The notes under the pieces are model-generated. The model was not told where the DNA came from and made no database searches. It saw nothing but the letters and a program-made list of their open reading frames with translations. Both the position numbers and the translations under genes were made by a program. A stretch of DNA of 64,000 bases from an uncultured bacterium (lineage in GTDB: Bacteria; Abyssobacteria; SURF-5), in NCBI GenBank assembly GCA_964607485.1, contig CAZSKP010000004.1, forward strand, positions 64,001 through 128,000, written 5' to 3'. Positions 7,629 through 55,820 of the stretch are shown piece by piece. Numbering within the stretch: position 1 is the stretch's first letter; every line of letters starts with the position of its first letter.

Positions 7629-7727
7629 CCTTCACTGTTTTGAAGCAACGAAGAGTCAACCTTCCACCTATCCGATTCTTCAAGTATCGCTCTCAGAGAC
7701 TGCACACTTCGTCTTCTATTCTGCACT
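7629..7727 (+). repeat. intergenic repeat family, copy A
   Basis: CCTTCACT..AGTCAACCTTCCACCTATCCGATTCTTCAAGTATCGCTCTCAGAGACTGCA-CACTT-CGTCTTCTATTCTGCACT. Confidence 0.85.
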
Positions 7728-7896
7728 CATCTCCCAAACTCCTATTCTCCAGTAAGCATTTCTGGAAATGGAGAATATTTCTCTCTTCAAGGAAGAATCC
7801 CAGCTTCTTGTCGATGCCCCCTGGTCGTGAAAAACCCGCCGCTTTCTGATATACTGATTTTTCCGAGATACCCAGATGTGAAACGAAAAGAAAGGA

Positions 7897-10158
7897 ATGT
7901 TATCCACAATGGCAGAAAGAAAAGAAGACAGGCTCGCTCACGGTAAATCACGTAGGAAGTTCTCTACTGTTGGCGTGATCGCACTGGCTATCGCTGCCCT
8001 GGCGTTGTGTTCAACCCAATCAGCCATGGCGGGCGACATCCCTGGAACCGGTAAGGACGCGGGGAAGACAGTAGTGTATCGCGACACGTGGGGCGTGCCT
8101 CATATCTTTGCGCCGACCGTCGAGGCGGGCGCGTACGCCATTGGCTGGGCCCAGGCGGAAGATAGACCGGAGGAACTCCTCAAAAATTTCCTTCGAGCCA
8201 TGGGTGAAGACGCAAAGGTTGAAGGCCCGGCATGGATCAAGTCGGATCTGGTGATGCGTGCGTGGAGGAACTACGAAGTCTCCAAAGAAAACGCTCACCG
8301 CATCCGGCCTGAAGTGCGTAAGATGCAGCAGGCCTGCGTCCGCGGCATCAACGATTATTATGCTGCGCATCCGGAGGATGTTCCGGAATGGTGGGGAACG
8401 CGCAAGGTCGATGAATACATGATGATCGCGTTTGGCCGATTATTTCTCTATAATTGGTCTTTTGAGCAGGCGTTTGCCGATTTGGCCAGGGGCGGCATAG
8501 AACCCGGCATAGAGCCGATAAAGCATGGCTCGAACGAGTTCGCCGTCTCACCCGCCAGGAGCGCAGAGGGAGCGGCGATTCTTGCTATCGATCCGCATCT
8601 TTCGTGGTGGGGTTTGACTCGCTTCTGGGAGTTCCGCATTCATGCAGGCGAGCTCAACGGAAGCGGCTTCACTCTGCCCGGTTTTCCGAACATTGGGCTC
8701 GGCCATACCGACTATCTCGCCTGGGCGATGACCACCGGTGGGCCCGATACTGCCGATGTGTATGAACTCACCCTCAACGCGAATAACCCCTCGAAATATC
8801 TCTACGACGGCGAATGGAGGCAGATGACTTCACGTGACATAACGATAGAAGTGAAAGGAATGGAACCACAGCATTTCAGGGTCTACTACTCGCACTATGG
8901 CCCTGTCGTGGCCCAGAAGAACGGTAAAGCCTATGCCGCGAAAACCGCCTACGCCGATTGTGTCCAGGCGGGTGAGGCATGGTATGAACTGAACTTCGCA
9001 AAAGATTATCGGGGTCTTATCGCCGCGGCGGACACACTCCAGCTCTACCCGCAGAACGTCATGGTCGCCGATACCTCCGGCAATATTTTCTATGAGCGCG
9101 TGGGGCGCGTGCCCCGCCGGCCGGCGGGATTCGACTGGTCGCGGCCGGTCAACGGATCGACATCGGCGACCGAATGGCAAGGGTTTCATCCGGCCTCTGA
9201 CTTTGTTCAGATACTCAATCCGTCGCAAGGATACATGCAGAACTGCAACGTTCCGCCTGATGTGATGATGGTCGGCAGTCCCCTCACGCCCGGGAAGACG
9301 CTGCCCTACCTGTATGGCGACCTGATCTACGGTCCGCTCAGTGGCTGGATAACTTCACGCGGTGCCCGGGCGGTCGAGCTGCTTCAAGCCGACGACTCGG
9401 TGACTGCGCAAGAAGCCAAATCATATATTCTGGATGTTCGCCCGGCCGGTATTGATCGATGGCTTGAGGTCTTGAGGAACGCGGACGCAAAATTCGGTGC
9501 AGCGCATAAGGACGACAGCGATTACGTGGCAGGCATCAAAGAAATGAAAGCCTGGAATGGCGAGCTTCGGCGCGATTCATCAGCCGCCTTGAAGTACTAC
9601 TATTGGAAGAAGCAGCTCTTCGAGGATTACGGAACCGATCCTTCGGCAATTGAATTGGCCGGGCGCATCGATGACCTGCTTGGCTCAGTGGGTGCTCCCG
9701 CTCCAGAATTGAATTTGACGGACGACCAGCTTGCGGCCCTCGCCGACGCCTTTGCCTCGGCCATGGCAAGCCTGAAGGCCGACATGGGCTCGCTCGACGC
9801 GAAATATGGCGACATGTTCCGCGTGGGGCGAGACGACAAGTCCTGGCCTGTAGGCGGTGGAGGTCCCAATAATCTGGGTATGCGAACGCTCCGTAACGTG
9901 GAATATGGACCCGAACGGCCAGACCATACTCGCTGGGGCAGTGGTGGCCAGACCTCAACGCAGATCGTCGTCATGAGCAAACCCGTGAGGAGCTGGACCG
10001 CTGTACCGATTGGGCAAAGCGACCGACCGGAGTCGCCGCATTACAACGATCAGGCCGAAAAGCTCTTCAGCAAGCGCACGCTGAAACCCACGTGGTACGA
10101 CCCTGAAGAGCTGGCAGGCCACATAGAATCACGCACCGTTCTCGACCGGGCACCTTAA
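7897..10158 (+). CDS. penicillin acylase family (Ntn-hydrolase) secreted amidase
   Basis: Signal peptide, YRDTWGVPHI, GWAQAEDR, GSNEFAV nucleophile Ser, DPHL, GQS..PESPHYNDQ; start uncertain. Confidence 0.9.
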   Translation: MLSTMAERKEDRLAHGKSRRKFSTVGVIALAIAALALCSTQSAMAGDIPGTGKDAGKTVVYRDTWGVPHIFAPTVEAGAYAIGWAQAEDRPEELLKNFLRAMGEDAKVEGPAWIKSDLVMRAWRNYEVSKENAHRIRPEVRKMQQACVRGINDYYAAHPEDVPEWWGTRKVDEYMMIAFGRLFLYNWSFEQAFADLARGGIEPGIEPIKHGSNEFAVSPARSAEGAAILAIDPHLSWWGLTRFWEFRIHAGELNGSGFTLPGFPNIGLGHTDYLAWAMTTGGPDTADVYELTLNANNPSKYLYDGEWRQMTSRDITIEVKGMEPQHFRVYYSHYGPVVAQKNGKAYAAKTAYADCVQAGEAWYELNFAKDYRGLIAAADTLQLYPQNVMVADTSGNIFYERVGRVPRRPAGFDWSRPVNGSTSATEWQGFHPASDFVQILNPSQGYMQNCNVPPDVMMVGSPLTPGKTLPYLYGDLIYGPLSGWITSRGARAVELLQADDSVTAQEAKSYILDVRPAGIDRWLEVLRNADAKFGAAHKDDSDYVAGIKEMKAWNGELRRDSSAALKYYYWKKQLFEDYGTDPSAIELAGRIDDLLGSVGAPAPELNLTDDQLAALADAFASAMASLKADMGSLDAKYGDMFRVGRDDKSWPVGGGGPNNLGMRTLRNVEYGPERPDHTRWGSGGQTSTQIVVMSKPVRSWTAVPIGQSDRPESPHYNDQAEKLFSKRTLKPTWYDPEELAGHIESRTVLDRAP

Positions 10159-10340
10159 TATGATCGCGTTCAGCCTGATGCGGGATGCGAAGATGCTCCG
10201 GCTTCTGGTGGGCAAGAATCCCGTCCTGCAGATAATCGCGCTGCAGAAGGTATGGGATAGATCAGCGATATGCGAGAAGATTTGTATTTTCATATGGGGT
10301 GCAGGGCCGAATTCATTCGGCCACACGACCCCCGAGCGGC

Positions 10341-11369
10341 CTAAATGAACGTCAGCATCCTCGCAGGATTTCCAACCGTTATCGCGTCGATATCCTGATT
10401 GCTCATTCCCTTGCGCTTCATGATGGGAAGCACGCTGTCGAGTATGTGATTATACCCCTCCCCGCCGTATTTCGCCAATTGCGTCTTGTGGCAGACATCC
10501 ATCGATACGAGTATTTTGTCACCGTACCCTCTTTCAATGAGATTGATGATGTAATCGACCCGTCCCGCATCATTCGGCATGTCGATATCCGAAAGCGGAT
10601 AGTAGCTTGCCTCCTGGCCAAAGAGATCGAACTCAATATAGCATCCGGTTTCGGCCAGCCTGAGCATATCGTTCAGTTTCAGGAGTGTCCGCTCCACATG
10701 ACTCATAATCGTTCGTTCCGGATCACCTCCGGCGTCCTTGACAATGCGGATCGCATCGAGAGGCGCCTCCTCGGAGCGCCCGGGATGAATGTTGAGAGCT
10801 GCGCCTGATTGCGTCTGAGCCATGGCGCCGGCGCGAAGAACTCTAACCTCATTGTCATATGCCGGCCAATCCAGCGCTATCTCACCGATGATGCCGGCCT
10901 TTATCCCTGTTCCGTCTGCACCGCGGGTGATTTCGTTCAAGAAAATCCCGGCGATATCCTCTTCCGAGAGATTTGCTATGTCGGGCGGATGAAAGGCGGC
11001 GTTGTAGTAACTCGTTCCCATGACGACATGGACGCCTGCGGCACGCGATATGCGCGCATATGCCTCAGGGTCGCGGCCGGTACCGATGGGACTCAGCTCA
11101 ACAACCGTTGCGCCGCCCGATGCCTTGAAGCGCTTCAATTCTTCAATGGCATCTGTCTCGCTGTCGAGGCTCAAGTTGTACGGATTGCTGAGCCAGTTGC
11201 GTCGAAAATAGCCGACATTCTCGAGCGTTATCGGTTCACCTTTGTATTCTTCACGCAACGTTTCAGGAATCAAGTTAACGAGGAGATGCTCGTGGGTCTG
11301 CGTAAAGCCCAGTTCCTCTGGCCCGATAACGCCCAGAACCGTCTGTACTTTTCCCGTCAATTCTTCCAT
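10341..11369 (-). CDS. phosphotriesterase-related amidohydrolase
   Basis: VQTVLGVI, THEHL, IKAGIIGEI, IHPG, MSHVE, NPARML. Confidence 0.9.
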   Translation of the reverse strand: MEELTGKVQTVLGVIGPEELGFTQTHEHLLVNLIPETLREEYKGEPITLENVGYFRRNWLSNPYNLSLDSETDAIEELKRFKASGGATVVELSPIGTGRDPEAYARISRAAGVHVVMGTSYYNAAFHPPDIANLSEEDIAGIFLNEITRGADGTGIKAGIIGEIALDWPAYDNEVRVLRAGAMAQTQSGAALNIHPGRSEEAPLDAIRIVKDAGGDPERTIMSHVERTLLKLNDMLRLAETGCYIEFDLFGQEASYYPLSDIDMPNDAGRVDYIINLIERGYGDKILVSMDVCHKTQLAKYGGEGYNHILDSVLPIMKRKGMSNQDIDAITVGNPARMLTFI

Positions 11370-11530
11370 CAGACACAATCCTTTTCAGGATTCCCGTCTC
11401 ACAAACGGCCCAAAAGGAATGGAGTGCGCGGCGGAGTAACAGTGCGGCGCGTAGTAAGTATAGTAGTGAGATATTAGCGTGTCAAGCAAGTAAAGGTCTG
11501 CCTGCAGGCATTTGCCTTTCCCCCGCGGGG

Positions 11531-13734: not shown

Positions 13735-13939
13735 GCCGCCCGAAAACTCCCGCCGCCTGGCATTGACATGAACGCAGTCCTGCCGCTATAACTGCGCCAC
13801 TGTTTTCTACCGACATGCAACCAGGGAATTCCGATGCTCGCGAAGGTCTTCAGCAGTTGCGTGTTCGGGGTGGACGCCTACCAGGTCGAGGTCGAGGTGG
13901 ACCTGGGCGGCGGGCTGCCTTCGTACAAAGTCGTTGGCT
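13735..13939 (+). pseudogene. comM: duplicated comM/YifB promoter plus first ~35 codons
   Basis: 7 mismatches in 176 nt (13763-13938) versus 45443-45618; homology ends abruptly after LPSYKVVG. Confidence 0.92.
13763..13792 (+). promoter_or_regulatory. sigma70-type promoter (copy of the comM promoter)
   Basis: TTGACA-N18-TATAAC. Confidence 0.65.
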
Positions 13940-14056: not shown

Positions 14057-14155
14057 CTCTCCCCAATACACTCGCTCCCTTTTGTGCCAGTTGTTATCCG
14101 CTATTATCGTTGCAATGTCGATCGAGCCAAAGCCGGACTGTTTCTCGTCCTTCTA

Positions 14156-14605
14156 TTATCGATAAGGAAAGAGGCTGCGCTTGAAGTCGTCAAGTTGATT
14201 GAGGAGTTTCAAGTGCTTGGATTCGTCTTCAAGCAAATATGTGAGGAGATACCTGATCTCAAATAGTCGACTGTCGCGAATCGCTTCCTGCGCGATATCC
14301 ACTGACTTATGCTCGATCCCGTGGTAGCCTTCCACCAAATCCCATATTTCCACCAGCTCGTCCGGCGTCAGGTGAAGTGCCTCCTTTGTAAGGCTATCTC
14401 TAATAAGCTTCAGAACTTCAATATGCGACTCTGAATCTCTTCGGATTATTTCAGCGATCATTTTTATCAAAGTATTCTTGGTTCTTTTCTGAACTTCGGT
14501 GCATGTTTTTGCTGAAAGTGATTCCATCTTCTGCCATTTGTCCAAGTCAACAAGAAATCGCTCCTTCTTCTCAGCAGACTCCAATGACTTCCTTGGCATG
14601 ATCAA
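14156..14605 (-). CDS. ferritin-like four-helix-bundle protein
   Basis: Two helical repeats with DSESH and EDESKH metal-ligand motifs. Confidence 0.7.
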   Translation of the reverse strand: MIMPRKSLESAEKKERFLVDLDKWQKMESLSAKTCTEVQKRTKNTLIKMIAEIIRRDSESHIEVLKLIRDSLTKEALHLTPDELVEIWDLVEGYHGIEHKSVDIAQEAIRDSRLFEIRYLLTYLLEDESKHLKLLNQLDDFKRSLFPYR

Positions 14606-14930
14606 TCACCCTTTCTTGCCACAGTTCACCTCGCAAGAGTTTTCGGGTTACGGCTCCAATCGTGCGGACGTTCTCCCCATGTCCAGCCAAACCAGGGAAA
14701 ACTCTTGAGAAGGCTGAGGCGCCCCTATAAAACTGAGGCAACACACCCTAAACCATTGGCCTAAGAGCCTTTATTCCTTAGCCCGTTCTGACACCCTCGC
14801 CAGTTGGTAGCTCTGGCCTTGAACATGCGCACATTAATTATACCATGATCTATTGAGCTGTGGCGTATCCGGTGACAATTTGAGAAAAAACAATAGATTT
14901 GCTCATATATTAATTATTTCCAATTTTTGG

Positions 14931-15005
14931 AAAATCAACCTTCCACCCATCCGATCGTTCAAATAGCGCCCTCAGAGAGTGCATAATACGTTTTCAATTC
15001 TGCAT
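14931..15005 (+). repeat. intergenic repeat family, copy B
   Basis: AATCAACCTTCCACCCATCCGATCGTTCAAATAGCGCCCTCAGAGAGTGCA-TAATA-CGTTTTCAATTCTGCAT. Confidence 0.9.
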
Positions 15006-15116
15006 TTTATGAGATGGCGTCTTCCCCCGAAAGGGTAGCCCAATAGGATCTCTTGCTTTGAACATCGTTCTGGAGCCGTTTCAGGCCTTAGAAGAGGCAG
15101 GTGCGTCGAATAACCA

Positions 15117-16034: not shown

Positions 16035-16276
16035 TATCTCTTCACCTTTCAGAAGGTAACCCGTTGTTGATGAATATAAGAGTCGTGCCCAAAAAGCCTC
16101 GATGCGCGCGTGGCGTTTGATGCGTCGCCATTATAGCCACTGCGTTTCCACTTTATCAGTAGCTTTGTTGCAAGCAGAACATGAAGGAACTCTGTAAATG
16201 ATCTATTCCTCCAGCGGCCTTGCGAAGCACATCTACTAAGCCTGCGTATTAGGCGTCTCCATGAGCATTGCATATG

Positions 16277-16388
16277 AGCGCGGGGAATAGATTCCTGAGA
16301 ATACAGTGAGAACCTTCACTTTCCCGGCCATCCGATCGTTCAAATGGCGTCCTCAGGTAGTGCGCAATACGTATTCAACTCTTGACTG
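16277..16388 (+). repeat. intergenic repeat family, copy C (deletion in left part)
   Basis: ATAGATTCCTGAGAATAC..CCTTCACTTTCCCGG|CCATCCGATCGTTCAAATGGCGTCCTCAGGTAGTGCG-CAATA-CGTATTCAACTCTTGACT. Confidence 0.85.
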
Positions 16389-16411
16389 GCTTTACAAGGC
16401 CGATTCTATCG

Positions 16412-17578: not shown

Positions 17579-17735
17579 GGCTTCCTCCGATAATCCTTAT
17601 CTTAAGCCCCAACGTCTATGAGTTTTCCCTCATTGATTTAGAATATCATATCATATTGGACAGCCCTGCAAATGGCAGTGCGAACAATCCAGTTCCGTGT
17701 CAAACCTCGCCGTTTCCCTTACCTCTCGGAGGGAA

Positions 17736-17793
17736 ATCCGACCTTTTAGATATCGCTCTGAGAGAGTGTAAAAGACGTTTTCGATTCTGCACT
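17736..17793 (+). repeat. intergenic repeat family, copy D
   Basis: ATCCGACCTTTTAGATATCGCTCTGAGAGAGTGTA-AAAGA-CGTTTTCGATTCTGCACT. Confidence 0.85.
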
Positions 17794-17900
17794 AGTTACG
17801 ACCTTTCCCATAAAGCATTCTTGCTCTTTACGAAACTGAAGGACACCCATCTCACTAGGGTCGGGATGACCTCAAATCTGATGCTGCCTAGGGTTGAGAT

Positions 17901-17929
17901 TTGACATTTGCGCTTTGCCGGTTTATAAT
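17901..17929 (+). promoter_or_regulatory. consensus sigma70 promoter
   Basis: TTGACA-N17-TATAAT upstream of the response regulator. Confidence 0.75.
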
Positions 17930-18979: not shown

Positions 18980-19444
18980 ATGCCTGCCAAGAGAATCTTT
19001 GAGGGTTTGAGCAAGCCTGAGATAAACCGCATATTCGATTTGGGCGTGATTCGCCCAATTAACGAAGGAGAACTGATATTTCGCAAGGGCGACATCGGCC
19101 AAGAAATGTATATCATATTGACGGGAATGATTAATATTGTTGATGAGTTGAAAGCCAATGCTTTAGGAATTATTGCGGAATTGGGGCCCGGCGAGGTCCT
19201 CGGCGAAGTCGCGATATTTGGGGAACCCCATAAGCACTCGGCCCACGCCATTGCCAAGGAACGGACGCAGGTTCTCGTGCTGAGCGAGAAGATGCTAAAC
19301 GAGCTGTTTGAAAAAGATATTCCAAAGAAATTCCTTATGAATATTATCAAGATACTCTGTCATCGTCTTAGGGTCACTAACCGCATGTACATGATCGCCA
19401 AATTCAGCGACAAACTTCTCCCGAAGGAAAGATCAGTGGAATGA
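18980..19444 (+). CDS. stand-alone cyclic nucleotide-binding domain protein
   Basis: IFRKGDIG.EMYIILTG, LGPGEVLGEVA, SAHAIA; no HTH. Confidence 0.85.
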   Translation: MPAKRIFEGLSKPEINRIFDLGVIRPINEGELIFRKGDIGQEMYIILTGMINIVDELKANALGIIAELGPGEVLGEVAIFGEPHKHSAHAIAKERTQVLVLSEKMLNELFEKDIPKKFLMNIIKILCHRLRVTNRMYMIAKFSDKLLPKERSVE

Positions 19445-19488
19445 AGTTGCAGTAGGTCTAATCGTTCGAAATCGCGGCCAAAATCTCC

Positions 19489-19540
19489 AACTCTACCACC
19501 GGTCCGATCGTTCATTGGTGAGTTTCAATTCTTGACTGAT
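19489..19540 (+). repeat. intergenic repeat family, copy E (internally deleted)
   Basis: CCACCGGTCCGATCGTTCA...TTTCAATTCTTGACTG. Confidence 0.6.
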
Positions 19541-19689
19541 TTTCGCTTATCAAGAACCGAATTCTCAGCCTCCAGAAGCGTAGAATTCCCCCCTCCCTGA
19601 GAAGTTTCTTCGCCCCTCCAAATCTCAAACTCTCAGTGGCAAGATCCCTTTGCATTCTGATATACTGAACTCAAAGAAAAGGTGATGCC

Positions 19690-20499: not shown

Positions 20500-20515
20500 T
20501 AGATCGCAGATTCTA

Positions 20516-20614
20516 AGATTCCCCGGAATAACAGTTGAAAACTTCACTCCGCCGTTTTTCCATAGGTGCACATTTCACCCATCCGATTGCCTAAATATCG
20601 CTCTCAGCTAGTCC
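20516..20614 (+). repeat. intergenic repeat family, copy F (right end lost)
   Basis: GAAAACTTCACT..GGTGCACATTTCACCCATCCGATTGCCTAAATATCGCTCTCAGCTAGTCC. Confidence 0.85.
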
Positions 20615-20741
20615 AGACCGAGATGCAGCTCCCATCCTTTCAATTTCCTAAATTTCGTCTTCGCTCATTTTGGGCAACCTCTCCCTATCTTGACTCTTGA
20701 ACGGAACGGCACCTGCCAGCCTGCTATGCTTGTGCTGGCGG

Positions 20742-22670: not shown

Positions 22671-22849
22671 GTATTTTTTTGCACGATGCCAAAAAAATTG
22701 AGCGCCAGCAATGTAAACCTCTTCGTTTCAAATATTTACATGACATGAAGGGACTTTCCGAAGAAGAATCTTTCCTATTCCAAACCTCCTCCGATGTTTT
22801 GAGGTCATCGGCCTCGAGAGATGTCTCCCATAATTTCCCGTGGGCCAAC

Positions 22850-23002
22850 ACCCATTCAGCAACAGAAGCGGACGAGATAGATTTCTGAGAATACTTGTTA
22901 AACGCTTCACTTCTCCGGCTTTTATGAAAGTGCACATTTCACCCATCCGATTGTGCAAACGTTGCTTTCCGCTAATGCAGATAACGTTTTCGACTCTGCA
23001 CT
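22850..23002 (+). repeat. intergenic repeat family, copy G (long form)
   Basis: ACCCATTCAGCAACAGAAGCGGA..CTGAGAATA..CTTCACT..AAAGTGCACATTTCACCCATCCGATT..TGCA-GATAA-CGTTTTCGACTCTGCACT. Confidence 0.88.
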
Positions 23003-23302
23003 GAGTCTCTGGTCTTCGAAGGCTAGTTCTTCGCCTCGAGAAGGAGAGAATTCCACCGTTCCCGCCAGAAAACTTCACACCCGATTACATCCCCGATTCA
23101 TGGAAAGCCGGCTCATATGATCGGGTTTGACTTGACCCATTGTTGTGGTATGATATTCTTTCAGATTTGCCGTTAGCGACCTCGTAGCCGTGTCCCGGGA
23201 GGGGATACCATGGCGCAGGGGTTGTTATCATAGAGAAAAGGTGAAAGACAAAATTCAGGACTGGATTTCAAGCGCGCGCGTCTGCCCCGCACGCTTTTCC
23301 CC

Positions 23303-24542: not shown

Positions 24543-25868
24543 ATGGAAAAGCTCGGCATGAATGAAAAGTCCCCGGCAGTGAAGCCCGGCAACAAGATGT
24601 TGAGGCTGGCCGCTGTAATTCTTCTTGTCCTCTTCGGATTTGTCCTGTTGATACTTGTCAAGACAAATCCGGGAAAGATGTGGAAGATATATACATTCTT
24701 TGACGAAGGCAAGAGGATCGAGAATTTCCGCCACTTAGAGCAAATCATGCCTGCCAAGAGGATAAGACGGTCGGGGTCGAAACACGAATTCGCGCGAAAT
24801 ATCCGCGAGCTCAACAAGACATATGAATTCAGGGGCGAGACCAGGAGTGTGGGCGGGTTCCTCGATCGAACCGTGACCACGGGATTTCTTGTCGTCAAGG
24901 ATGACGAGATCGTGACCGAAAAATATTTTCTCGGTGCGACTGAAGAGACGATGTTCACTTCGATGTCTGTGGCGAAATCGTTCGTGTCGGCGCTTGTCGG
25001 AATAGCGATCGATGAGGGATTTATCAAGGACGTCGATGATTCCATAACCGATTACGTCACCACCCTGAGAGGCTCAGGATACGACGGTGTTCCCATCAAG
25101 CATGTCCTTCAGATGTCATCCGGCGTGAAGTTCAACGAGGTATACGATGACCTGTTTTCGGACATCAACCTGCTCTTCTATAAAGTGTTCGGGTTGGGCC
25201 AGCCTATGGATGACTATATGGCAGGCCTCGGTGCCGAAAGTCCATCCGGCGAAACCAGTTATTACAGGAGCTGCGACACACAGGCGCTTGGCATGCTGAT
25301 CTCGGCGGCAACCGGGAAGTCGGTCTCAGAATACCTCGAGGAAAAAATCTGGGGCAGAATCGGAATGGAACATGATGCATTCTGGTCCACAGACGATCAT
25401 GGAACGGAGATAGCCTTCGGATTCCTGAACGCGGCGCTCCGCGATTATGCGAAATTCGGCACGCTGTACTTACACGGTGGAAGCTATAATGGCGAACAGA
25501 TCGTTTCCAAGGAATGGGTATCGGAATCCGTCACGCCGGATAATCCTCACCTTCAGCCGGGAGAAAAACCCAAAGGATACGAGACTTTCGGCAATTTCGG
25601 ATACCAGTACCAGTGGTGGATCCCAGACAATCCTGACGGTGAGTATTTGGCGATCGGAGTCTGGGGGCAATACATATATGTCTATCCGAAAGAAAACCTT
25701 GTTATTGTCAAAACGAGCGTCGATCCAGATTTCGAAGCGAACAATTATGAGCATGATGATGAAACTGTGACGCTCTGCCGCTCGATTGCGGCATTTCTCC
25801 GTGAGAATCACGCGGCAAACGACATGGAGCAAGCGAACCTGTCGGTCCCAACAAACGAATCGGAATAA
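24543..25868 (+). CDS. serine hydrolase, beta-lactamase-like family, membrane-anchored
   Basis: N-terminal TM, SVAK (SxxK), YRS, GYQYQWW, AIGVWGQ. Confidence 0.88.
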   Translation: MEKLGMNEKSPAVKPGNKMLRLAAVILLVLFGFVLLILVKTNPGKMWKIYTFFDEGKRIENFRHLEQIMPAKRIRRSGSKHEFARNIRELNKTYEFRGETRSVGGFLDRTVTTGFLVVKDDEIVTEKYFLGATEETMFTSMSVAKSFVSALVGIAIDEGFIKDVDDSITDYVTTLRGSGYDGVPIKHVLQMSSGVKFNEVYDDLFSDINLLFYKVFGLGQPMDDYMAGLGAESPSGETSYYRSCDTQALGMLISAATGKSVSEYLEEKIWGRIGMEHDAFWSTDDHGTEIAFGFLNAALRDYAKFGTLYLHGGSYNGEQIVSKEWVSESVTPDNPHLQPGEKPKGYETFGNFGYQYQWWIPDNPDGEYLAIGVWGQYIYVYPKENLVIVKTSVDPDFEANNYEHDDETVTLCRSIAAFLRENHAANDMEQANLSVPTNESE

Positions 25869-25896
25869 ATGGAACCACTGCCTTCCATCCGCCACT

Positions 25897-26046
25897 ACCC
25901 ATTCAGCAATATAAGCGGAAGAAATAGTATCTGAGAATATTGTTGAAAGTGTGACTTTTTTTGCCTCTCTGAAAGTGTGACTTTCACCCATCCCATCGTT
26001 CAAATATCACTCTCAGCCAGTGAAGTTTGCGTTTTCACCTCCGCGT
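25897..26046 (+). repeat. intergenic repeat family, copy H (long form)
   Basis: ACCCATTCAGCAATATAAGCGGA..CTGAGAATA..TTTCACCCATCCCATCGTTCAAATATCACTCTCAGCCAGTGAA-GTTTG-CGTTTTCA. Confidence 0.88.
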
Positions 26047-26071
26047 GAACATATTCCCGGCCAAGCACCTG

Positions 26072-26295
26072 CTATCCATGCAGCGTTCGATCAGGGCTTT
26101 GGTATTGAATCGCTCCGGAGATGTGTTCGGCGCGGATGGTGTCGCTCTCGGCCAAGTCGGCGAAGGCGCGGACGACATTGAGGATGCGGTCGAGCAGCGG
26201 GCCGGAGATCTGCCGAGATACCGCTGCACCTGCCACGGCTGGCACGTGCATTCTTTTCTCGGATCGTCCAAATGTCCACAAAGGCAGCCATGTAG
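26072..26295 (-). pseudogene. comM: inverted, internally deleted 3' fragment of comM/YifB
   Basis: [26 protein letters not shown] (1-nt deletion) SGPLLDR fused to ILNVVRAFADLAESDTIRAEHISGAIQY; 42 nt identical to the intact gene. Confidence 0.9.
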
Positions 26296-26665
26296 GACGT
26301 TTGTGTCGAAAATGGTGCCTATCCAATCCAATTTCCTCTCTCGCTGAGGGTATTCTACCCTTTCAAAGCTTTCCTTGTCACTAGTCGCAAAAGCCGTCCC
26401 CTGGGCTCTACAAATCGTGAAGATTTTTGATTAAACTCTTCAAGTTCGCCCGTCTGCCATGCCTCGCAAATTGGAGTGAATACGGCACTTACGGCGACGG
26501 TGAAGAATACCCGCTTTCCGAAATCAGACCTTCAAAATCATCCGTCTGGTTTGCCTCAGGAGGAGGCAAAATTCGGCAACTCTTTGTTTTGGCTGTCCTT
26601 ACGTGGTGGTCAGTACGGTTATTCTATGATATAATTCTGTTCGCTTGAAGGAGGTGGTAAACAAC

Positions 26666-41486: not shown

Positions 41487-41606
41487 CGGTGGCCTCCGCT
41501 CTGCGCTGAGGGAATGGTTTCCCCTCACATTGCCCAACGGGGGGTCGGCTGCCCGATCCCTTCAGCAATCCGCCGACGAGTCCTCTCCATGCGCCGTGTG
41601 GAGGAG

Positions 41607-42233
41607 CTACCCGACGTTCACTTTGATGCGACCGTGGGTCTCTGTGATGCTCTTGCGGGGGCTTCGAAATGTGATAATAATCTCCCGCCCCTCGCCGGGA
41701 TCGAAAATCTCGGTCGCTCTGTTCTCGCCACGGTGAAGTTCCCAGAAAAAGCGAACCCGGCGGTTCTCGTCAATGGCTTGAACGAGCTTTTTCCGGACTT
41801 TCTCTTTCTGGTCATTGGGCCACGCGTCGATATGAGCACAGAGCCGCGCGTGGTCTTTTGCGTTCAGGAAGGATTCAAGCCTTTTTTTCGCCCAGGTAGG
41901 AAGCGAGTCGAAATGAGCGTTCCCATCCGCAGCAGCCTCTTTTTGCATCTCGGCGAAGTTTGGGTCCGACCTGAGCCGGCCTGGATCGGCGAACAGCGTG
42001 TCCAACGCTTTCGTGATCTTCGTCCTGCCCGTTCGCAGGATATCCACGAAAGTCTCCGGGCGCATCGTGTCCCAGGAGATGGCTGTCTCTGACGAAACTG
42101 CCCGCACACTCTCGCGGAAACCGGGGACACCAATCACGTTCAAGCCGAGAATCCCCAATGCCGTGCCCGCCCCCAGCGAGGCGGATTTTCCAAGGAGTTC
42201 CCTTCTCGTCAGCCTGGTTTCCTTTTTCGCCAT
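41607..42233 (-). CDS. Tat-signal hypothetical protein, paralog of 42297-42779
   Basis: TRRELLGK plus hydrophobic stretch; AAGGAG RBS. Confidence 0.8.
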   Translation of the reverse strand: MAKKETRLTRRELLGKSASLGAGTALGILGLNVIGVPGFRESVRAVSSETAISWDTMRPETFVDILRTGRTKITKALDTLFADPGRLRSDPNFAEMQKEAAADGNAHFDSLPTWAKKRLESFLNAKDHARLCAHIDAWPNDQKEKVRKKLVQAIDENRRVRFFWELHRGENRATEIFDPGEGREIIITFRSPRKSITETHGRIKVNVG

Positions 42234-42296
42234 GGTTACACTCCTTCGGTTTCGGAGGAGGAATCTCGGATCGTGGCCCGGCGATGCGCACCGGCC

Positions 42297-42779
42297 CTAT
42301 ACGTCTACGATAACTTCCGGCTCCTCGAACCTCACTTTCTTTCGCGGGCTGCGAAAGGTGATGGTGACGGCGCCTCCGGGTCCGGTGTCTTCGATCACAA
42401 TCCCCTCATTTTCGCCCCGATGCAGTTCCCAAAAGAAATCGACTCTGCGGTTTTCGTTAATTACTTCGACGAGTTTGCTGCGCATATCTTCCTTCTGGCT
42501 GTTGGGCCAATCGTCGATGTGCTTGACGATGAGGTTGAACGTCGCATCGGGAACAGGGGGAGGAAGGTTGTCTTTCAATTTGGTCTTGGCCCAGGCCGGG
42601 AGGCTGTCGAGGGCATTCCTTTTCTTGAACCTCTCGTCGGTGAAGTCGGGATCGCTCTTGAGCGGATGATCCGTTTGGGTCGGAGCATTCTGAAAGAGCT
42701 TGTCCAGCGAATGCATGGTTTTCGTCTTTCCCGTCCTGAGCGCATCCACAAAATCTTTCATCTTCGTCGCTGGGGGCAT
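42297..42779 (-). CDS. hypothetical protein without signal peptide, paralog of 41607-42233
   Basis: Shared LRTG.TK, DSLP.WAK, HID.WPN.QKE, ENRRV.FFWELHRGEN, ITFRSPRK. Confidence 0.8.
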   Translation of the reverse strand: MPPATKMKDFVDALRTGKTKTMHSLDKLFQNAPTQTDHPLKSDPDFTDERFKKRNALDSLPAWAKTKLKDNLPPPVPDATFNLIVKHIDDWPNSQKEDMRSKLVEVINENRRVDFFWELHRGENEGIVIEDTGPGGAVTITFRSPRKKVRFEEPEVIVDV

Positions 42780-43295
42780 ACTACTTCCTCCTTTCTGTCC
42801 GGTCCCGCAGGATGCACGGACCCGACACAAGCGGAACTGAATGATCGTGAGAGACGTAGTCGGAGTTCAGAGCTTCGGAGCCGGGACAATCCGGCATTGT
42901 TCGCAGGTCAGACTTCTTCGGAGGGGTTCGCTGGCTGACTTGAGTGTCTCTGAGCGTATCTTTCGCAATACACCCGTTTGACATGATGGCATCCGTAAAT
43001 CAACACTTATCAGGAAACTCCCTGTGGAATCTCCGGCTATCCGTCCCGGACAATGACAACTTTAGAGAAAAAACTTATCATACTTATGCGCAAAGTTATA
43101 TATCATAAAATTCATTTTTTGTCAAATTTCTTCTCTCATTTACGCAGCCACATAGGCCACCTGCAGTTTCTAAGCCCGGACACCGTAAGACAAAGAAACC
43201 GATGCTTTAAGCGATTGGTAATCAAGCATTTCCAGTCTTCCGCTCTGTGGCCGCCCATTGTTGTTAACTCGAACTTGAGGGACCCCTCTTCGCCC

Positions 43296-43345
43296 TTGAC
43301 AAGTAAGCCAAGAGCAGCTACGATAATGAATGAGGTCTCATTTAT
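43296..43345 (+). promoter_or_regulatory. TetR promoter and palindromic operator
   Basis: TTGACA-N17-TACGAT followed by dyad ATGAATGAG-GT-CTCATTTAT. Confidence 0.6.
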
Positions 43346-43406
43346 ATGTGAATGCAGAGTCAGTATTTGGAATGCCCATGTGGGATAACACCAGATTGGA
43401 GGCAAA

Positions 43407-44009: not shown

Positions 44010-44078
44010 AATCACGCGCTCCGGAGGATGGCGCTATCCGGTTTCAACGGAAGAGCGGTGACAGAGGAGAAGCAGCAA

Positions 44079-44464
44079 ATGAACACAGGTCATATTGACG
44101 AAATCCTGGAAGCTGTGACTGCAGGGAGCTACGGCGCCATCATGGAACTCTGCGAAAAGGCGCACGCGGCGGGGTTGCAGGCGAGGGAGATAGTCACTCA
44201 CGGATTGTCTAGGGGGATGGTCAAGACAGCCAAGCTCTACCGGAAGAGGGGTATGTATCTTGATTCCATCGTCAGGTCGGCCGCGGCGTTTCAAATGGGC
44301 ATGGCCTGTCTTCAATCCCATCTGGAGGAAGAAAAGCAGGTGCCCGTGGGACGCATTGTGCTCGGCGTGCCTGACGGTCCCTGGACGATCGGGAAAGACA
44401 TTGTTGCCGCGGTCCTGCGTGCACACGATTTTGACGTCTTCGACGCCGACCCGAAGCGCATCTG
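44079..44464 (+). pseudogene. corrinoid (B12-binding, MtaC-like) protein truncated by an IS remnant
   Basis: Cap domain (GLSRGM..LY..GMYL..IV.SA.AF) plus GRIVLG..TIGKDIVAAVLRAHDFDVFD, then a switch to transposase sequence. Confidence 0.7.
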
Positions 44465-44601
44465 TTACAATGAAACCAGGCCGCACCGCTCACTGGGGGG
44501 CATGCCACCCGGTGAATATACCCGGCTAATGGCCGAAACCCAAGGAGCAGCCGCCCTGGTTTCCTCCAGTCCGTAGTGGTACAGTTTCAGGGAAACGGTC
44601 A
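44465..44601 (+). mobile_element. IS3-family remnant: transposase C-terminus and right end
   Basis: YNETRPHRSLGGMPPGEY; ends GTGGTACAGTTTCAGGGAAACGGTCA. Confidence 0.7.
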
Positions 44602-44661: not shown

Positions 44662-45192
44662 ATGTCATCTAATATTGAGGTCAAAGCTAAGGTCAGAGAA
44701 CTGGACCAATTCAGATGCATTGCAATGCGCATGGCCACAGAACCGTTGCAGACACTTCATCAAGAAGACATTTTCTTCCGCGTACGAACGGGAAGGCTTA
44801 AGCTACGAATCTTTTCAGATGGTACAGGTGAACTGATACAATACGAGCGTCCAGATATCAGTGGAGCCAAACAGTCAAATTACCAGATTCACCGCACATC
44901 CAAGCCGCTGGAGTTGCGAAAAATCCTGTCGGAGGCTCTGGGTGAGACTGCAACGGTAAAGAAGAAGAGAGAGGTCTACATAGTAGGGCAGACGAGGATT
45001 CACTTAGATGAGGTCGATACGTTGGGGACTTTTGTTGAAGTGGAAGTAGTGTTGAGTCCCGGCCAGAGCCCGGACGAGGGACGGAGAATTGCATCCGATC
45101 TCATGGATAGGTTGGGCATCAAAGAGTCTGACTTGGTTCCTTGCGCCTATGCAGATCTTCAAAAAAACAAGGCTGAACAAGAGCGTGCCTGA
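44662..45192 (+). CDS. CYTH-domain protein (class IV adenylate cyclase-like)
   Basis: NIEVKAK, RLKLR, VKKKREVY, RIHLDEV, FVEVEV. Confidence 0.88.
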   Translation: MSSNIEVKAKVRELDQFRCIAMRMATEPLQTLHQEDIFFRVRTGRLKLRIFSDGTGELIQYERPDISGAKQSNYQIHRTSKPLELRKILSEALGETATVKKKREVYIVGQTRIHLDEVDTLGTFVEVEVVLSPGQSPDEGRRIASDLMDRLGIKESDLVPCAYADLQKNKAEQERA

Positions 45193-45196
45193 GGCC

Positions 45197-45293
45197 GCTT
45201 CACTTTCCCGGCTGCCCGCGAGTGCACCTTCCACCCTTCCGATCGCTCAAACATCGCTTTGAGAGAGTCAAGTTTTCGTTTTCAATTCTGCAC
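45197..45293 (+). repeat. intergenic repeat family, copy I (comM-proximal)
   Basis: CTTCACTTTCCCGG..GAGTGCACCTTCCACCCTTCCGATCGCTCAAACATCGCTTTGAGAGAGTCAA-GTTTT-CGTTTTCAATTCTGCAC. Confidence 0.9.
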
Positions 45294-45442
45294 CATTTGA
45301 AAGCTTTTCCTTGTCCGGCCTGCCGAGTCCCACGCAGTGAAGGATACCGACCTTTCCGGCTCTCCGAAACCACAAAAATATGAGACATTTCAAGATTGTC
45401 CAGGGTGCTGTGGTGCCGCCGACAAAATCCTGCCGTCTGGCG

Positions 45443-45472
45443 TTGACATGAACGCAGTCCTGCCGCTATAAT
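45443..45472 (+). promoter_or_regulatory. comM sigma70 promoter
   Basis: TTGACA-N18-TATAAT. Confidence 0.75.
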
Positions 45473-45513
45473 TGCGCCACTGTTTTCTACCAGCATGCAA
45501 CCAGGAAATTCCG

Positions 45514-47049
45514 ATGCTCGCGAAGGTCTTCAGCAGTTCCGTGTTCGGGGTGGACGCCTACCAGGTCGAGGTCGAGGTGGACCTGGGCGGCGGGCTGCCT
45601 TCGTACACAGTCGTCGGCCTGCCCGACACGGCCGTCAGGGAAAGCAGGGAACGCGTCGCCGCCGCTATCAAGAACTCCGGCTACGTGCTGCCCAGCAAGC
45701 GCATCACCGTGAACCTCGCCCCCGCCGACGTGAAGAAGGAGGGCTCATCGTTCGACGTGCCCATCGCCATCGGCATCCTCGCCGCCTCCGAGCAGGTCAA
45801 GAGCGAGAAATTCCTCGACTATTACATTGCAGGGGAATTATCGCTCGACGGAACCATCCGCGGCATTCCCGGCGTGCTGACGATGGCGCTTCAGGCGTCG
45901 AAGATGAACAGGCGCGGCATCGTCGTTCCCACCGACAACTCGGCCGAGGCGGCGGTCGTCGAGAAGGTGGAGGTCATACCCGCGAAGACGCTGCGAGCGC
46001 TCGTCGATTTCCTCGAAGATTTCACGCCGATCGAGCCTCACCGGATAGACCTCGAAGCCGCCTTCAGGCAAAGCTCCCGATATGCGATTGACCTTCAGGA
46101 GGTGAAGGGACAGGCGCACGTGAAGCGGTCGCTCGAGGTCGCCGCCGCGGGAGGGCACAACGTGCTCATGATCGGCCCGCCCGGCTCGGGCAAGACGATG
46201 CTGGCCAAACGCCTCGCGACCATCCTGCCCGATATGACCCTCGAAGAGTCATATGAGACCACGAAGATTCACAGCATCAGCGGGTTCCTTCCTCCGGGGA
46301 AGCCGCTCATCGCGACGCGGCCGTTCCGCTCGCCGCACCACACGATTTCCGACGTCGCGCTCGTCGGCGGAGGCAACTACCCGAGACCGGGCGAGGTCAG
46401 TCTCGCGCACAACGGCGTCCTGTTCCTCGACGAACTGCCCGAGTTCAACCGGAAGGCGCTTGCGGCGATGAGACAGCCGCTCGAAGACGGCTGCGTCACC
46501 ATCTCGCGCGCCGCATATTCGCTCACCTTTCCCGCCAGCTTCATGCTCACCGCCGCGATGAATCCGTGTCCGTGCGGTAACCTGGGCGACCCCAGGCGCG
46601 AGTGCACGTGCCAGCCGTGGCAGGTGCAGCGGTATCTCGGCAGAATATCCGGCCCGCTGCTCGATCGGATCGACATGCACATGGAAGTACCCGCCGTCAA
46701 GTATGCCGACCTTTCATCCACCGAGCCGTCGGGCGAGCCCTCCGCCGCAATTCGCACGCGCGTGCAGAAGGCGAGGAACCTCCAGCGCGAGCGCTTTGGC
46801 GACGATTCGCTCCGATGCAACTCGCAGATGGGCTCGAAGCATGTGAAGAAATATTGTGTTACCACCGCCGACGCGAAGGAGCTTTTGAAGGCGGCCATCC
46901 TCAACCTCGGCATCTCCGCCCGTGCCTACGACCGCATCCTCAAAGTCGCTCGCACCATCGCCGACCTCTCCGAGAGCGATGTCATCCGCGCCGAACACAT
47001 TTCCGAGGCCATCCAGTACCGCAGCTTCGATAGAGGCCTCTGGAGGTAG
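45514..47049 (+). CDS. comM: YifB/ComM family Mg-chelatase-like AAA+ ATPase
   Basis: [69 protein letters not shown]. Confidence 0.96.
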
Positions 47050-50840: not shown

Positions 50841-50881
50841 GCGCGGTCCGGCCTCCATCGGTGGATTGCCGGACTATCAGC

Positions 50882-51922
50882 CTACGGTTTCCTGCCGGTG
50901 ATTCTGGTCAGAGAACCGGGAATAAATGAATGGACCTGAACATCGATAAATCCGGCATTCTCCAGATATCCAACCACTTCTCCCTCGGAATGAGCTCGTC
51001 CCTCGCTTCCGAATAGAGCCTCGTGAATGCCCCAGAGGGCCGGACCCAGCGGCCCGCATTTTTCATCGTTCAAGGTTTCCCCGACGACATGGTATTCTCC
51101 ACCCGGCTGCAGCGCCTCGTAAGCCTTTGTGAGAATCTTCAGGAGAACGCCTTCGCTGTATTGCGGCAGGTTGCTCGCCATAATCATCACATCGGCGCCG
51201 CGCGGAAGTGGGTCTCTGGTGAAGTCTGCCGGATAGACTGAGATTTTGTCTTGCATTTCCCATTGAGCTATGAACTCTTGCGCTACCTTGCACACGGGTT
51301 CGAAATCCAATACGGTCGCCTTGAGATGGGGATACTTCTGGATTGCCGCTATGCAATACGCGCCGGAACCGCCGCCGAGGTCGAGTATCATTGATCGTCC
51401 GCTCAGGTCCACATCCCTGGCAAACAGCATGCCTGCGCCCAAACCGACGGCGTACGTGGCCTCATGATACTCTCTGGCAATCTCTTCCGTCATGCTTTCG
51501 TAAAGCCCGAGCACCTTGGGAGGGGTGTCCGATTTGAGGTGGTCGGCCAGGTTCTTCCACTGCTCGAAATCCATTCCGGCAAAAAGCAGCCACGGCCCGA
51601 TGTAGGTAAGCTTTCCTCGTACCAGAAATCGCTCCACATCGGGCGCGTTCCGGTATTGGTCTCCTTCCTTTTCCAGGAGCCCGAGAGCCGCGCAGGCAAC
51701 GACAAGCCTTTCCGCATTGAGGTCACTCAAACCAACAGCGCCTGCGACTTGAGAAACATTTATGGCGCCCTCAGATACCCTGGTAAACAAATCCAATTGT
51801 ATCGCTGCTCTCAGAGTTGCACTCTGTTTGTGTCCGTAACTCAGGTTCTGCAAGCGCACGGTGTCTGTCTTTCTCTTACGAGTTGTCACGGATGCCTCCA
51901 AAACATTCTTGCGCCCTGTCAC
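50882..51922 (-). CDS. SAM-dependent O-methyltransferase with dimerisation domain
   Basis: LRAAIQLDLF N-domain; LDLGGGSG, ADF, ALQPGG. Confidence 0.88.
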   Translation of the reverse strand: MTGRKNVLEASVTTRKRKTDTVRLQNLSYGHKQSATLRAAIQLDLFTRVSEGAINVSQVAGAVGLSDLNAERLVVACAALGLLEKEGDQYRNAPDVERFLVRGKLTYIGPWLLFAGMDFEQWKNLADHLKSDTPPKVLGLYESMTEEIAREYHEATYAVGLGAGMLFARDVDLSGRSMILDLGGGSGAYCIAAIQKYPHLKATVLDFEPVCKVAQEFIAQWEMQDKISVYPADFTRDPLPRGADVMIMASNLPQYSEGVLLKILTKAYEALQPGGEYHVVGETLNDEKCGPLGPALWGIHEALFGSEGRAHSEGEVVGYLENAGFIDVQVHSFIPGSLTRITGRKP

Positions 51923-52749
51923 GTCTGGGGTGGTGTGCCGCCTTCTTCTTGAAGCATTTGTTCTATGCTTTTTATGAAGCCCGAAAAATCAAAGGACGTG
52001 TCCCATGTGTAGGGGAGGTCCACAATTTCACCCGGATTCGAGGCCGATGCGAGCACGTTCAGCGCATCCTTCAGAACCTGGGTCTGAAGCTCGACATCAT
52101 GCGGTTTGCCGCATTGATGGCCGAGCGGGAAATTGAGGAATGCGCTGCGAGGAGGTTTGACCCGGGCCATCATGTATCTGCACGAGCCGAGGTAAATTGT
52201 GGAGAGTCCGGCTTCTTCGATCTTGCGTGCTATCAGTCCGACCGACTGATGGTCCAGCGGTCAGGCCGGGACAAGCAGGACAAAATCTGCGCCCTCCCGT
52301 TTCAGAAGAGCCAGTATTTCGGGCACAGTCTCATTCTGTAGCGCTGTGCGTTTATAGAGCCGACCCATCCCGAGCGTGACCGCAATCGGCGCCAACTTTC
52401 CTATGTACCGTTCAGCCTCGAGTTCCTTCAGCCGCTCGACGGGAAACACGCAGTTTAGGTCATTTGCGGCGTCTCTGTGGTCGAAGTAGTTGTGATGAAG
52501 CCTGAGCCTTTCGTATGGGGTGTCGATTGGAATCTGACGGAAGCTCAAGTCATTCACAGCCCAAGGGTTGAACGGCTCTTGGTCGTCTCTGGAAATGCCG
52601 GCTGAACTGACCAGCGCCAGGCAACCTTCTTTCAGCGGTTTGCTCAGCGAAGACCACGGACTCGTGTCAAATTCGGACCATTTATAGGGCGGGAATCCTT
52701 GACTCTGATACATCTCGTTGAGGGCCGATACATAATCTATGGGCTTCAT
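51919..52749 (-). CDS. GrdB/PrdB-like reductase selenoprotein B family protein, Sec (UGA) at codon 163
   Basis: ORFs 52261-52749 and 51919-52173 are in one frame separated only by TGA; readthrough gives LLVPA-U-PLDHQSVGLIARKIEEAGLST..VKPPR..FPLGH. Confidence 0.85.
52232..52250 (-). promoter_or_regulatory. bacterial SECIS-like hairpin
   Basis: ATCAGTC-GGTCG-GACTGAT; G-led loop starting 17 nt after the UGA. Confidence 0.7.
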
Positions 52750-52796
52750 TTATTGCACCTCCTTGCCGTGTAATGAGAAATGCCCGCAAGAGACCA

Positions 52797-53921: not shown

Positions 53922-53938
53922 TTTCCTCTTTCCCTTCC

Positions 53939-55105: not shown

Positions 55106-55153
55106 TATCTGGTTCCTCCCATCGATTTAACTTTACCCGTGTTACGGGCCGGA

Positions 55154-55558
55154 CTATGAGCCGGACACGTAGGCTCCCTTCTTTTCCTCAGCGATGTTGT
55201 TTATGTATGCAAAATTCAGGAAGTATTCCAATGTACCCAGATACTTGCCGGACTTATCCCTGATTGCGAAAAAACAATTCAAGGCCCTGAGTCCCCAATC
55301 CTCTTTTATTACCCAGAACTCGTCTTCGTCCTTCTTTCCGCTCTTGAAATCCGACAGCATCTTTTCAAGCCTCGGTAGGCTGCTCTCTTTGTGGCAATCC
55401 CGGACGTCTTTTCCGAGGCTTTCTTCGGGGGGCTCCAGCAGGCGGGCCTTGGAGTTGTTCCAGTACCTGACGCGATCATTCTCGTCGATGAACAGAAGTT
55501 GAAACGGCATCGCATCGAACATACCTTCTATCTGTTCCGCTGTAAGCTTTTCGATCAT
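55154..55558 (-). CDS. PAS-domain protein
   Basis: FDAMPFQLLFIDENDRVRYWN..LGKDVRDCH..IRDKSGKYLGTLE. Confidence 0.8.
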   Translation of the reverse strand: MIEKLTAEQIEGMFDAMPFQLLFIDENDRVRYWNNSKARLLEPPEESLGKDVRDCHKESSLPRLEKMLSDFKSGKKDEDEFWVIKEDWGLRALNCFFAIRDKSGKYLGTLEYFLNFAYINNIAEEKKGAYVSGS

Positions 55559-55721
55559 GTTTCGCTCCTCTCCGTGGACGGCCTGAACGAATAACCGAAA
55601 CTATACTACTCGGTGGCCTCGGCTTTTTCAAGACAATCTCAATGGAAGCGAACGCGTGGGAGAGCTTTCTCCGAAGAGGCGGCATTGTTCACCCGCAGAA
55701 TTGTCACGAAGCATCCTTGGC

Positions 55722-55820
55722 CGTGCAGAATTGGAGAACGATCCGTGACTCATCTGGAGCGGTATGTGAGCGATCGGATGAGTGATGGTTGCGCTCTGGA
55801 GGTGGGGAAAATTGTCAAGG
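55722..55820 (-). repeat. intergenic repeat family, copy J (inverted)
   Basis: Minus strand: CCTTGACA..AGCGCAACCATCACTCATCCGATCGCTCACATACCGCTCCAGATGAGTCACGGATCGTTCTCCAATTCTGCAC. Confidence 0.8.

Follow-up and report, generated by a model that had tools for sequence, protein, structure and literature searches.

Candidate lineage-specific interspersed repeat copies in a gene array beside comM and its relics in the Candidatus Abyssubacteria group

What kind of element separates a run of unrelated genes near comM in the genome of an uncultured bacterium of the Abyssobacteria (GTDB lineage SURF-5)? The stretch of 64,000 nucleotides analyzed here, which we call the window (contig CAZSKP010000004.1 of assembly GCA_964607485.1, positions 64,001 to 128,000), carries copies of an intergenic repeat of roughly 110-250 bases. 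A sequence-only reading of the window had proposed that this repeat is the recombination site, or the scar, of a non-integron gene-capture platform anchored at comM. We found that the repeat is multi-copy and non-coding, that it is present on many contigs and in many genomes, and that it has no enzyme of its own. The interpretation that we favor, at a probability of about 0.55, is that the copies belong to a new lineage-specific interspersed non-coding repeat family of the MITE (miniature inverted-repeat transposable element), REP (repetitive extragenic palindromic) or ERIC (enterobacterial repetitive intergenic consensus) kind in the Candidatus (Ca.) Abyssubacteria group.

We built a nucleotide hidden Markov model (HMM) from the ten copies claimed by the sequence-only reading and searched it with nhmmer across the 64 kb. 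All ten were recovered in place, nine on the + strand and one on the − strand, with E values between 9e-12 and 2e-32; the best remaining match in the window had an E value of 0.76. A family of seven to eight direct copies was also recovered by repeat finding at the same positions. A second HMM, made from 32 copies (10 from the window and 22 from relatives), returned the identical ten copies and nothing more. The mean pairwise identity of the window copies is 66%. The alignment, judged by eye, shows no conserved reading frame, in agreement with the view that the repeat is non-coding.

Seven of the ten copies are located within 11 kb (simulated P of about 0.01), and nine of the ten share one strand (binomial P=0.021). 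Copy 1 (7613..7728, +, nhmmer E=1.5e-25) is a short form that begins 12 nt past the stop of an MFS gene (6318-7601). Between 14.1 and 26 kb every module of genes is closed by a copy, as had been claimed and as the Pfam map and the nhmmer matches together confirmed. The order is a ferritin-like gene, a nucleoside hydrolase, an M24 peptidase, an RR/cNMP trio, a hydrolase, a DGC-LiaF-ArsR group and a URO-D gene with a beta-lactamase-family gene, each followed by one copy. The copies of this run are all on the + strand. Copy 2 (14884..15016, E=4.8e-28) closes the module of a gene for a 149-residue protein and fits the scan pattern introduced below; copy 3 (16272..16391, E=2.1e-21) is missing some 24 nt of the 5' hairpin region in the alignment; copy 4 is at 17672..17803 (E=5.3e-19); copy 5 (19444..19542, E=9.1e-12) is an internally deleted remnant that begins at the stop of a cNMP-binding gene; and copy 6 (20502..20639, E=1.5e-24) has a degenerate 3' part and begins 3 nt past the stop of the hydrolase gene. 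The last two copies of the run are long forms: copy 7 (22798..23008, E=1.8e-32) has its core at 22861-23008 and a 5' extension from about 22798, and copy 8 (25832..26047, E=6.6e-31 for the match at 25909-26047) has a 5' extension from about 25832, which overlaps the final 36 nt or so of the gene at 24543-25868. Farther downstream, copy 9 (45178..45303, +, E=3.1e-27) overlaps the stop of a CYTH gene, with the ATG of comM 211 nt farther downstream, and copy 10 (55712..55825, E=4.8e-20), the sole copy on the − strand, contains the stop codon of a radical-SAM gene (55815-56780). The modules of the dense run differ in orientation, four of the seven being on the − strand and three on the + strand, and two of the seven hold three genes (RR-x-cNMP and DGC-LiaF-ArsR). 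Strong promoter-like sites are found within modules, for example at 17901-17929 (12/12 matches) and 22670-22642 (11/12).

In well-kept copies, the element is composed, from 5' to 3', of a variable 5' part, a stem-loop (H1), an unpaired core and a second stem-loop (H2). The arms of H1 are GAAAGTTTCACT and AGTGAAACTTTC, the strongly conserved unpaired core is CACCCATCCGATCGTTCAAATATCGCTCT, and H2 consists of the arms AGTGAAGAAT and ATTCTTCACT around the spacer CGTTTTC. The consensus from the 32-copy alignment reads ..TTGTTGAAAGnTTCACT, about 17 nt, and AAAGTGnAnCTTTCACCCATCCGATCGTTCAAATATCGCTCTCAGAGAGTGAAGAnTnCGTTTTCnATTCTGCACT. In this alignment the 3' edge is sharp, common to all copies and identical with the end of H2, and the 5' extent is variable; about a dozen copies, including those at 22861 and 25909 of the window, are long forms with about 100 nt extra on the 5' side. 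H2 is AT-rich, and a T run 3' of it is missing in most copies.

The two stem-loops are borne out by a comparison of copies. Across 27 copies, 70.9% of cells in the arms of H1 and H2 are paired, compared with 32-44% when the partner is slid, and they contain 26 double changes versus 17.4 in shuffles, a count of 26 being reached in 5 of 500 shuffles. As single strands, four well-kept copies of relatives fold with z-scores of −3.3 to −5.5. The fold is lost in all ten window copies (z-scores of −1.9 to +1.5) and in the five tested copies of relatives that lay outside the pattern selection (−1.4 to +0.7). RNAalifold returned a consensus structure of 0 pairs for nine window copies (both strands) and for the 27 copies. 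The core and the CGTTTTC spacer are kept at 80-90% even among nine copies that the scan pattern misses, and the exact spacer is present in 22 of the 32 copies (5/10 in the window and 17/22 in relatives).

The distribution of the repeat beyond the window was examined by scanning 185,579 species genomes with a 25-position IUPAC pattern (a 38-bit block), which matches four of the ten window copies and none of 100 shuffles. The sensitivity of this pattern is low, and the counts in relatives are therefore lower bounds. Alternative patterns were tried and rejected: those fitted to all nine copies caught 1 of 9 left-out copies, subset-fitted patterns caught 0, and contiguous consensus blocks caught 3 of 9. 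The scan gave 17 loci on 16 contigs of six assemblies, namely six loci in CAYZZY01, four in CBDUSG01, four on three contigs of QZKI01 (Ca. Abyssobacteria SURF_17), and one each in CAZEBC01, CBFDAY01 and JBDRGH01. None of them has the match spacing of the window, so the matches do not include the window's own genome, and the genome-wide picture rests on relatives. When the loci were examined with 2-kb flanks around the matches, all 17 were found to contain a full copy (nhmmer E<=1.5e-20), and five more copies nearby brought the total to 22; fourteen of the 17 loci hold one copy within the flank examined. The neighboring genes are unrelated (Pfam, 39 open reading frames, ORFs). They include glnA (glutamine synthetase, locus L011), a pyruvate:ferredoxin oxidoreductase subunit (POR, L004), OmpA (L003), a Ser/Thr kinase (L006), multihaem cytochromes and an MFS sugar transporter. 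We detected no similarity among the flanks of the 17 loci, and thus no orthologous flanks for a comparison of filled and empty sites. An all-against-all blastp of the neighbors revealed no recurring protein family beside the copies; the sole matches were spurious ORFs that read through the repeat. The sequence-only reading had named copies scattered through the genome as an outcome that would speak against gene capture, and this is largely what the 17 loci on 16 contigs, beside unrelated genes, show.

The copies are no more alike within a genome than between genomes, their identity being 70-84% across assemblies, equal to the 75-82% found within one assembly. Each copy is 71-92% like the consensus, closer than the average likeness of copy to copy, which is a star-like pattern of similarity. 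Among the sources searched, none holds a described family that matches the repeat, and its description as unrecognized is upheld to this extent: Rfam gave 0 matches at the gathering score for the whole window and 0 at E<=1 for locus L014, which has three copies; plasmid and phage collections gave no blastn match to one long-form copy; and the terms "repeat", "transpos", "mobile" and "integron" each occur 0 times in the description paper of the lineage (PMC6121073). Searches of 64 window ORFs with Pfam, of 26 further ones with NCBIfam and of the 39 locus ORFs with Pfam yielded no integrase, transposase or recombinase. Looking for a recombinase that co-occurs with the repeat, a check put forward in the sequence-only reading, thus gave nothing across the 64 kb and the 17 loci.

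The copies lie in intergenic spacers, and most begin 0-200 nt past the stop of a co-oriented upstream gene. By mechanical ORF calls, some of them without Pfam support, 29 cases could be scored, and in 21 of them (P=0.024), including 15 of 19 in relatives, the gene on the 5' side of the element shares its orientation. The six window copies with a co-oriented upstream gene begin −14 to +41 nt from its stop codon, and in a few cases the stop codon is inside the element. Within the window array, the upstream gene runs antisense to four of the seven copies. GC skew in the window does no more than track the direction of the genes.

One relative has an array of its own. Loci L013 and L014 of SURF_17 share contig QZKI01000022.1 (at about 79.7-87.0 kb), where six co-oriented copies and one remnant occupy 7.3 kb together with an amidase, a DAO-family oxidoreductase, a URO-D paralogue (26% identity) and the gene for the 149-residue protein. 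This gene (14156-14605 in the window) and its upstream region constitute the sole module that the window shares with a relative (14102..14851, −). By blastn and tblastn, it corresponds to L014 2376-3121, with 85% nucleotide and 92.6% amino acid identity, and in SURF_17 it has repeat copies on both sides. The other modules of the SURF_17 array differ from those of the window. The homology ends 77 nt from the upstream copy in SURF_17, and the distance from the edge of the module to the nhmmer start of the downstream copy is 33 nt in the window and 270 nt in SURF_17. The suggestion that modules would be gained or lost exactly at the repeat is therefore not borne out by the single shared module, the edges of which are 33-270 nt off the repeats. 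The repeat copies beside it are 79-81% alike, no better than unrelated copies, in what is one case only. We considered horizontal transfer of the module and dropped this explanation, because the 92.6% identity is in line with the other relatives of the 149-residue protein (84-93%) and with ComM (82-89%); an identity typical for the lineage gives no sign of recent transfer. What the similarity does show is that the two arrays are probably orthologous and turning over quickly.

comM itself is intact, as the sequence-only reading had stated. The gene (45514..47049, +) encodes a YifB-family Mg-chelatase-like ATPase of 511 residues from the ATG at 45514, with all three Mg-chelatase domains (Pfam), and aligns end to end with full-length relatives of 511 residues. 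The ComM relatives are 82-89% identical (82% in SURF_5). Upstream lies a near-perfect sigma-70-type promoter (45443-45472; TTGACA, 17 nt, TATAAT). The window also contains three relics of comM, all recovered by repeat finding as well, which the sequence-only reading had not seen. Relic (a) (13735..13938, +) comprises a promoter (13763-13792, one base off that of comM, TATAAC), the 5' untranslated region and the first 35 codons; it is 93% identical to 45415-45618 and has a sharp right edge. Relic (b) (26081..26331, −) is an inverted 3' part with an internal deletion that abuts copy 8. It was identified by blastn (93% over 72 nt and 80% over 118 nt) and tblastn, and corresponds to about residues 351-400 joined to residues 475-523 of the 525-residue ORF starting at 45472. 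Relic (c) (58158..58203, +) consists of the last 15 codons and its own stop codon, and is 83% identical to 47002-47047. The dense array is bounded exactly by relics (a) and (b), in the order of a 5' piece, the array and an inverted 3' piece with its gene end toward the array. One inversion splitting a second comM copy and its downstream DNA would give this layout. No convincing alignment was obtained for repeat remnants between relic (a) and the shared module or for homology of the adjoining spacers.

Excerpts of one report (PMC10293859) describe Tn6022 (Tn7-like, with TnsF) and Tsy (a tyrosine-recombinase transposon) as inserting at comM's Walker B motif and splitting the gene. The window resembles such insertions in that 5' and 3' pieces of comM flank foreign DNA, but differs from them in its intact comM, in the inversion of one relic and in the position of the relic edges (45618, about 46583 and 47002), which are off the Walker B motif (46420-46434). 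Because the breakpoints are away from Walker B, we rejected Tn6022 and Tsy as the cause of the relics. TnsA/B/C, TnsF and YRec genes were not found in the window with Pfam or NCBIfam. What holds of the proposed role of comM is that its surroundings have been rearranged: given three relics, the first two of which bracket the array, comM is a rearrangement hotspot here. The other half of the proposal, that the repeat is anchored at comM, is not supported. None of the 17 loci holds comM (tblastn with 71 window ORFs), these loci are on 16 contigs among unrelated genes, some of them housekeeping genes, and nothing links comM to the repeat in other genomes.

How well does an interspersed repeat family account for these observations? 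Known families of this type in bacteria are MITE-like elements, REP/BIME (bacterial interspersed mosaic elements), ERIC, BOX and Correia/NEMIS. The repeat resembles them in its size class (100-300 nt), in being non-coding, intergenic, multi-copy and lineage-restricted, and in its internal imperfect palindromes, its mosaic of long and short forms and its star-like similarity. As a member of such a family, it would have been spread in trans by an enzyme encoded elsewhere, and the ten window copies would be insertions that are old and have decayed. The tight series of co-oriented copies at 14.9-26.1 kb would then reflect a fast-changing accessory region beside the rearranged comM, where recombination between co-oriented copies is a plausible contributor to the loss and gain of modules. 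Several observations weigh against this interpretation. Copies on the same contig are co-oriented whatever the direction of the genes (9/10 in the window, 6/6 in the SURF_17 array and 2/2 at locus L015), which random insertion does not predict, and co-oriented arrays in two genomes set the repeat apart from the known families. The copy number also looks low and clustered for a MITE: SURF_17 has four pattern matches, and six of the eight copies found in it lie in 7.3 kb of one contig, much as seven of the ten in the window lie in 11 kb. We found no terminal inverted repeats in the alignments, where the long form's 5' end does not complement the shared 3' end, and the variability of the 5' ends made target-site duplications impossible to define. 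Neither the window nor the loci showed an autonomous parent element or a transposase. Finally, the 30-nt unpaired core is better kept than the stems, and this uneven conservation along the element hints at constraint beyond neutral decay.

Three alternatives were considered. If the repeat were the recombination site of a non-integron cassette system, with a recombinase encoded elsewhere, circular modules consisting of genes and one site would be inserted and excised, and the lone copies would be landing pads or secondary sites. We consider this unlikely, even though it would account for copies that keep one orientation per contig regardless of gene direction, for modules between 14.1 and 26 kb that each end in a copy, and for an array of six copies in SURF_17 that shares one module and differs in the others, despite genomes that are fairly close (92.6% for the 149-residue protein and 82-89% for ComM in the lineage). 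The comM relics that bracket the window array fit as well, and H2, with inverted arms of 10-11 bp and a spacer, is laid out like the core site of a tyrosine recombinase, a resemblance of layout only. On the other side, no recombinase is encoded in the 64 kb or the 17 loci, 14 of the 17 loci of relatives have a single copy within the examined flank, some beside housekeeping genes, and the edges of the shared module are 77 nt (upstream) and 33 or 270 nt (downstream) from the copies. The copy beside that module is about 79-81% like either SURF_17 copy, the same as unrelated copies; the hairpins are lost in 10/10 window copies; and the variants of the left and right arms of H2 are weakly associated. 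A more specific version, in which an unlinked recombinase inserts and excises circular modules at the H2 core, arrays turn over fast, and the window array was seeded next to part of a second comM copy and subsequently inverted together with it, is still harder to credit. If the cassette explanation were true, it would represent a second, integron-independent route to gene cassette arrays. Vibrio cholerae VCR arrays are integron cassette arrays, and the window array is like integron arrays and CALINs in having unrelated short modules, each ending in a repeat of about 120 nt that keeps one orientation, with genes that stop at or inside the repeat. CALINs are clusters of attC sites without an integron-integrase, as described in PMC4889954, and share with the window a repeat array that has no integrase nearby; the lack of intI, a difference from complete integrons, is therefore not decisive alone. 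The repeat differs from integron sites in being conserved in sequence rather than in structure and in having ends that do not pair. An attC-like pairing of the two ends was tried and rejected: 74% is paired, but covariation is absent, the observed paired percentage being reached in 300 of 500 shuffles, in keeping with the earlier statement that the repeat is not an attC site. Integron cassettes are mostly promoterless, single-gene and co-oriented, and the window modules are not: genes run in both directions and have promoter-like sites of their own, and lone copies lie beside housekeeping genes. The gene-capture platform that had been proposed keeps a small probability, owing to the co-oriented copies, the SURF_17 array with other modules and the comM relics that bracket the window array.

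A fixed orientation would also result if the repeat were a non-autonomous derivative of an IS200/IS605-type "peel and paste" transposon, the stem-loops of which would be recognized by a Y1 transposase that is encoded elsewhere; by inserting into the lagging-strand template, the element would acquire a fixed orientation relative to replication. IS608 TnpA is described as recognizing imperfect palindromes that lie subterminally at each end (PMC3201880), and the lagging-strand template as the target of both IS608 and ISDra2 (PMC6006769). Like palindrome-associated elements of this group, as described in PMC5027513, PMC3201880 and PMC6006769, the repeat has two imperfect palindromes near its ends, no terminal inverted repeats and a uniform contig orientation, and strand-specific insertion fits both that orientation and the co-orientation with the upstream gene at most single sites (15/19 in relatives). 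Nevertheless, we regard this origin as distinctly doubtful, since no Y1 transposase (TnpA) or TnpB domain was found in the window or the loci, no conserved tetra- or pentanucleotide that could serve as a target motif is evident at the 5' edge of nine long forms, and a variable 5' extent is atypical of such elements. Selection on the element as a cis-acting DNA or RNA signal, such as a 3'-untranslated-region stabilizer, a weak terminator, a small RNA or a protein-binding site, is the least probable of the explanations considered. It would explain why, in 21 of 29 cases, a co-oriented gene ends 0-200 nt before the element begins, why the conservation of the element is uneven, with the 30-nt core and the loop motif at 80-90%, and why the hairpins show some compensatory change. 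However, four of the seven array copies are antisense to the upstream gene, the AT-rich H2 is mostly not followed by a T run, and RNAalifold gives no consensus structure for 9 or 27 copies, nor is there an Rfam match even at E<=1; the fold is lost in most copies, and the neighboring genes share no function.

Several other features of the window were noted. URO-D-family (MtaA-like methyltransferase) genes adjoin repeat copies both in the window (4788-6011 and 23303-24478) and in SURF_17 (L012 1381-1773 and L013 2230-3351), and are distant paralogues with 20-26% identity. A corrinoid-protein gene (MtaC/MtbC-like, B12-binding; 44028-44576, +) looks truncated, covering profile positions 2-117 of 197, and its tail has a weak 16-residue match to rve_3, an integrase-core domain, at E=6e-4, which is below the cut-off. 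Together with the corrinoid protein, the URO-D-family genes suggest a methyl-transfer accessory metabolism in these regions. The GrdB/PrdB-family reductase gene (51919-52749, −) is one frame of 276 residues with a single in-frame TGA at 52261-52263 (..LLVPA*PLDHQ..); the ORF lister had split it into two ORFs, and it has matches to Pfam GRDB and NCBIfam PrdB. This reading through one TGA suggests a selenocysteine codon. Two paralogues encoding cNMP-binding (CRP-like) proteins (18980-19444, +, and 35186-35653, −) form a 71-nt inverted repeat with 79% complementarity. The gene at 37665-41537 (−) encodes a multidomain protein of 1290 residues with adenylate/guanylate cyclase, AAA_16 STAND ATPase, alpha/beta hydrolase, TPR and BTAD activator domains. 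Next to it, the segment at 41538-43400 (about 1.9 kb, 56-60% G+C) has overlapping ORFs of 177-223 residues on both strands, none of which has a Pfam or NCBIfam match.

For annotation, these results provide a defined repeat family, with a consensus and HMMs, for a poorly known subsurface lineage. The repeat flags intergenic spacers as well as regions prone to rearrangement, and can cause breaks in the assembly of such genomes. For a simple interspersed repeat, it is unusual to form co-oriented arrays with different modules in two related genomes, and the three comM relics are likewise unusual. The arrays and the comM relics together make a good test case for small repeats promoting gene turnover.

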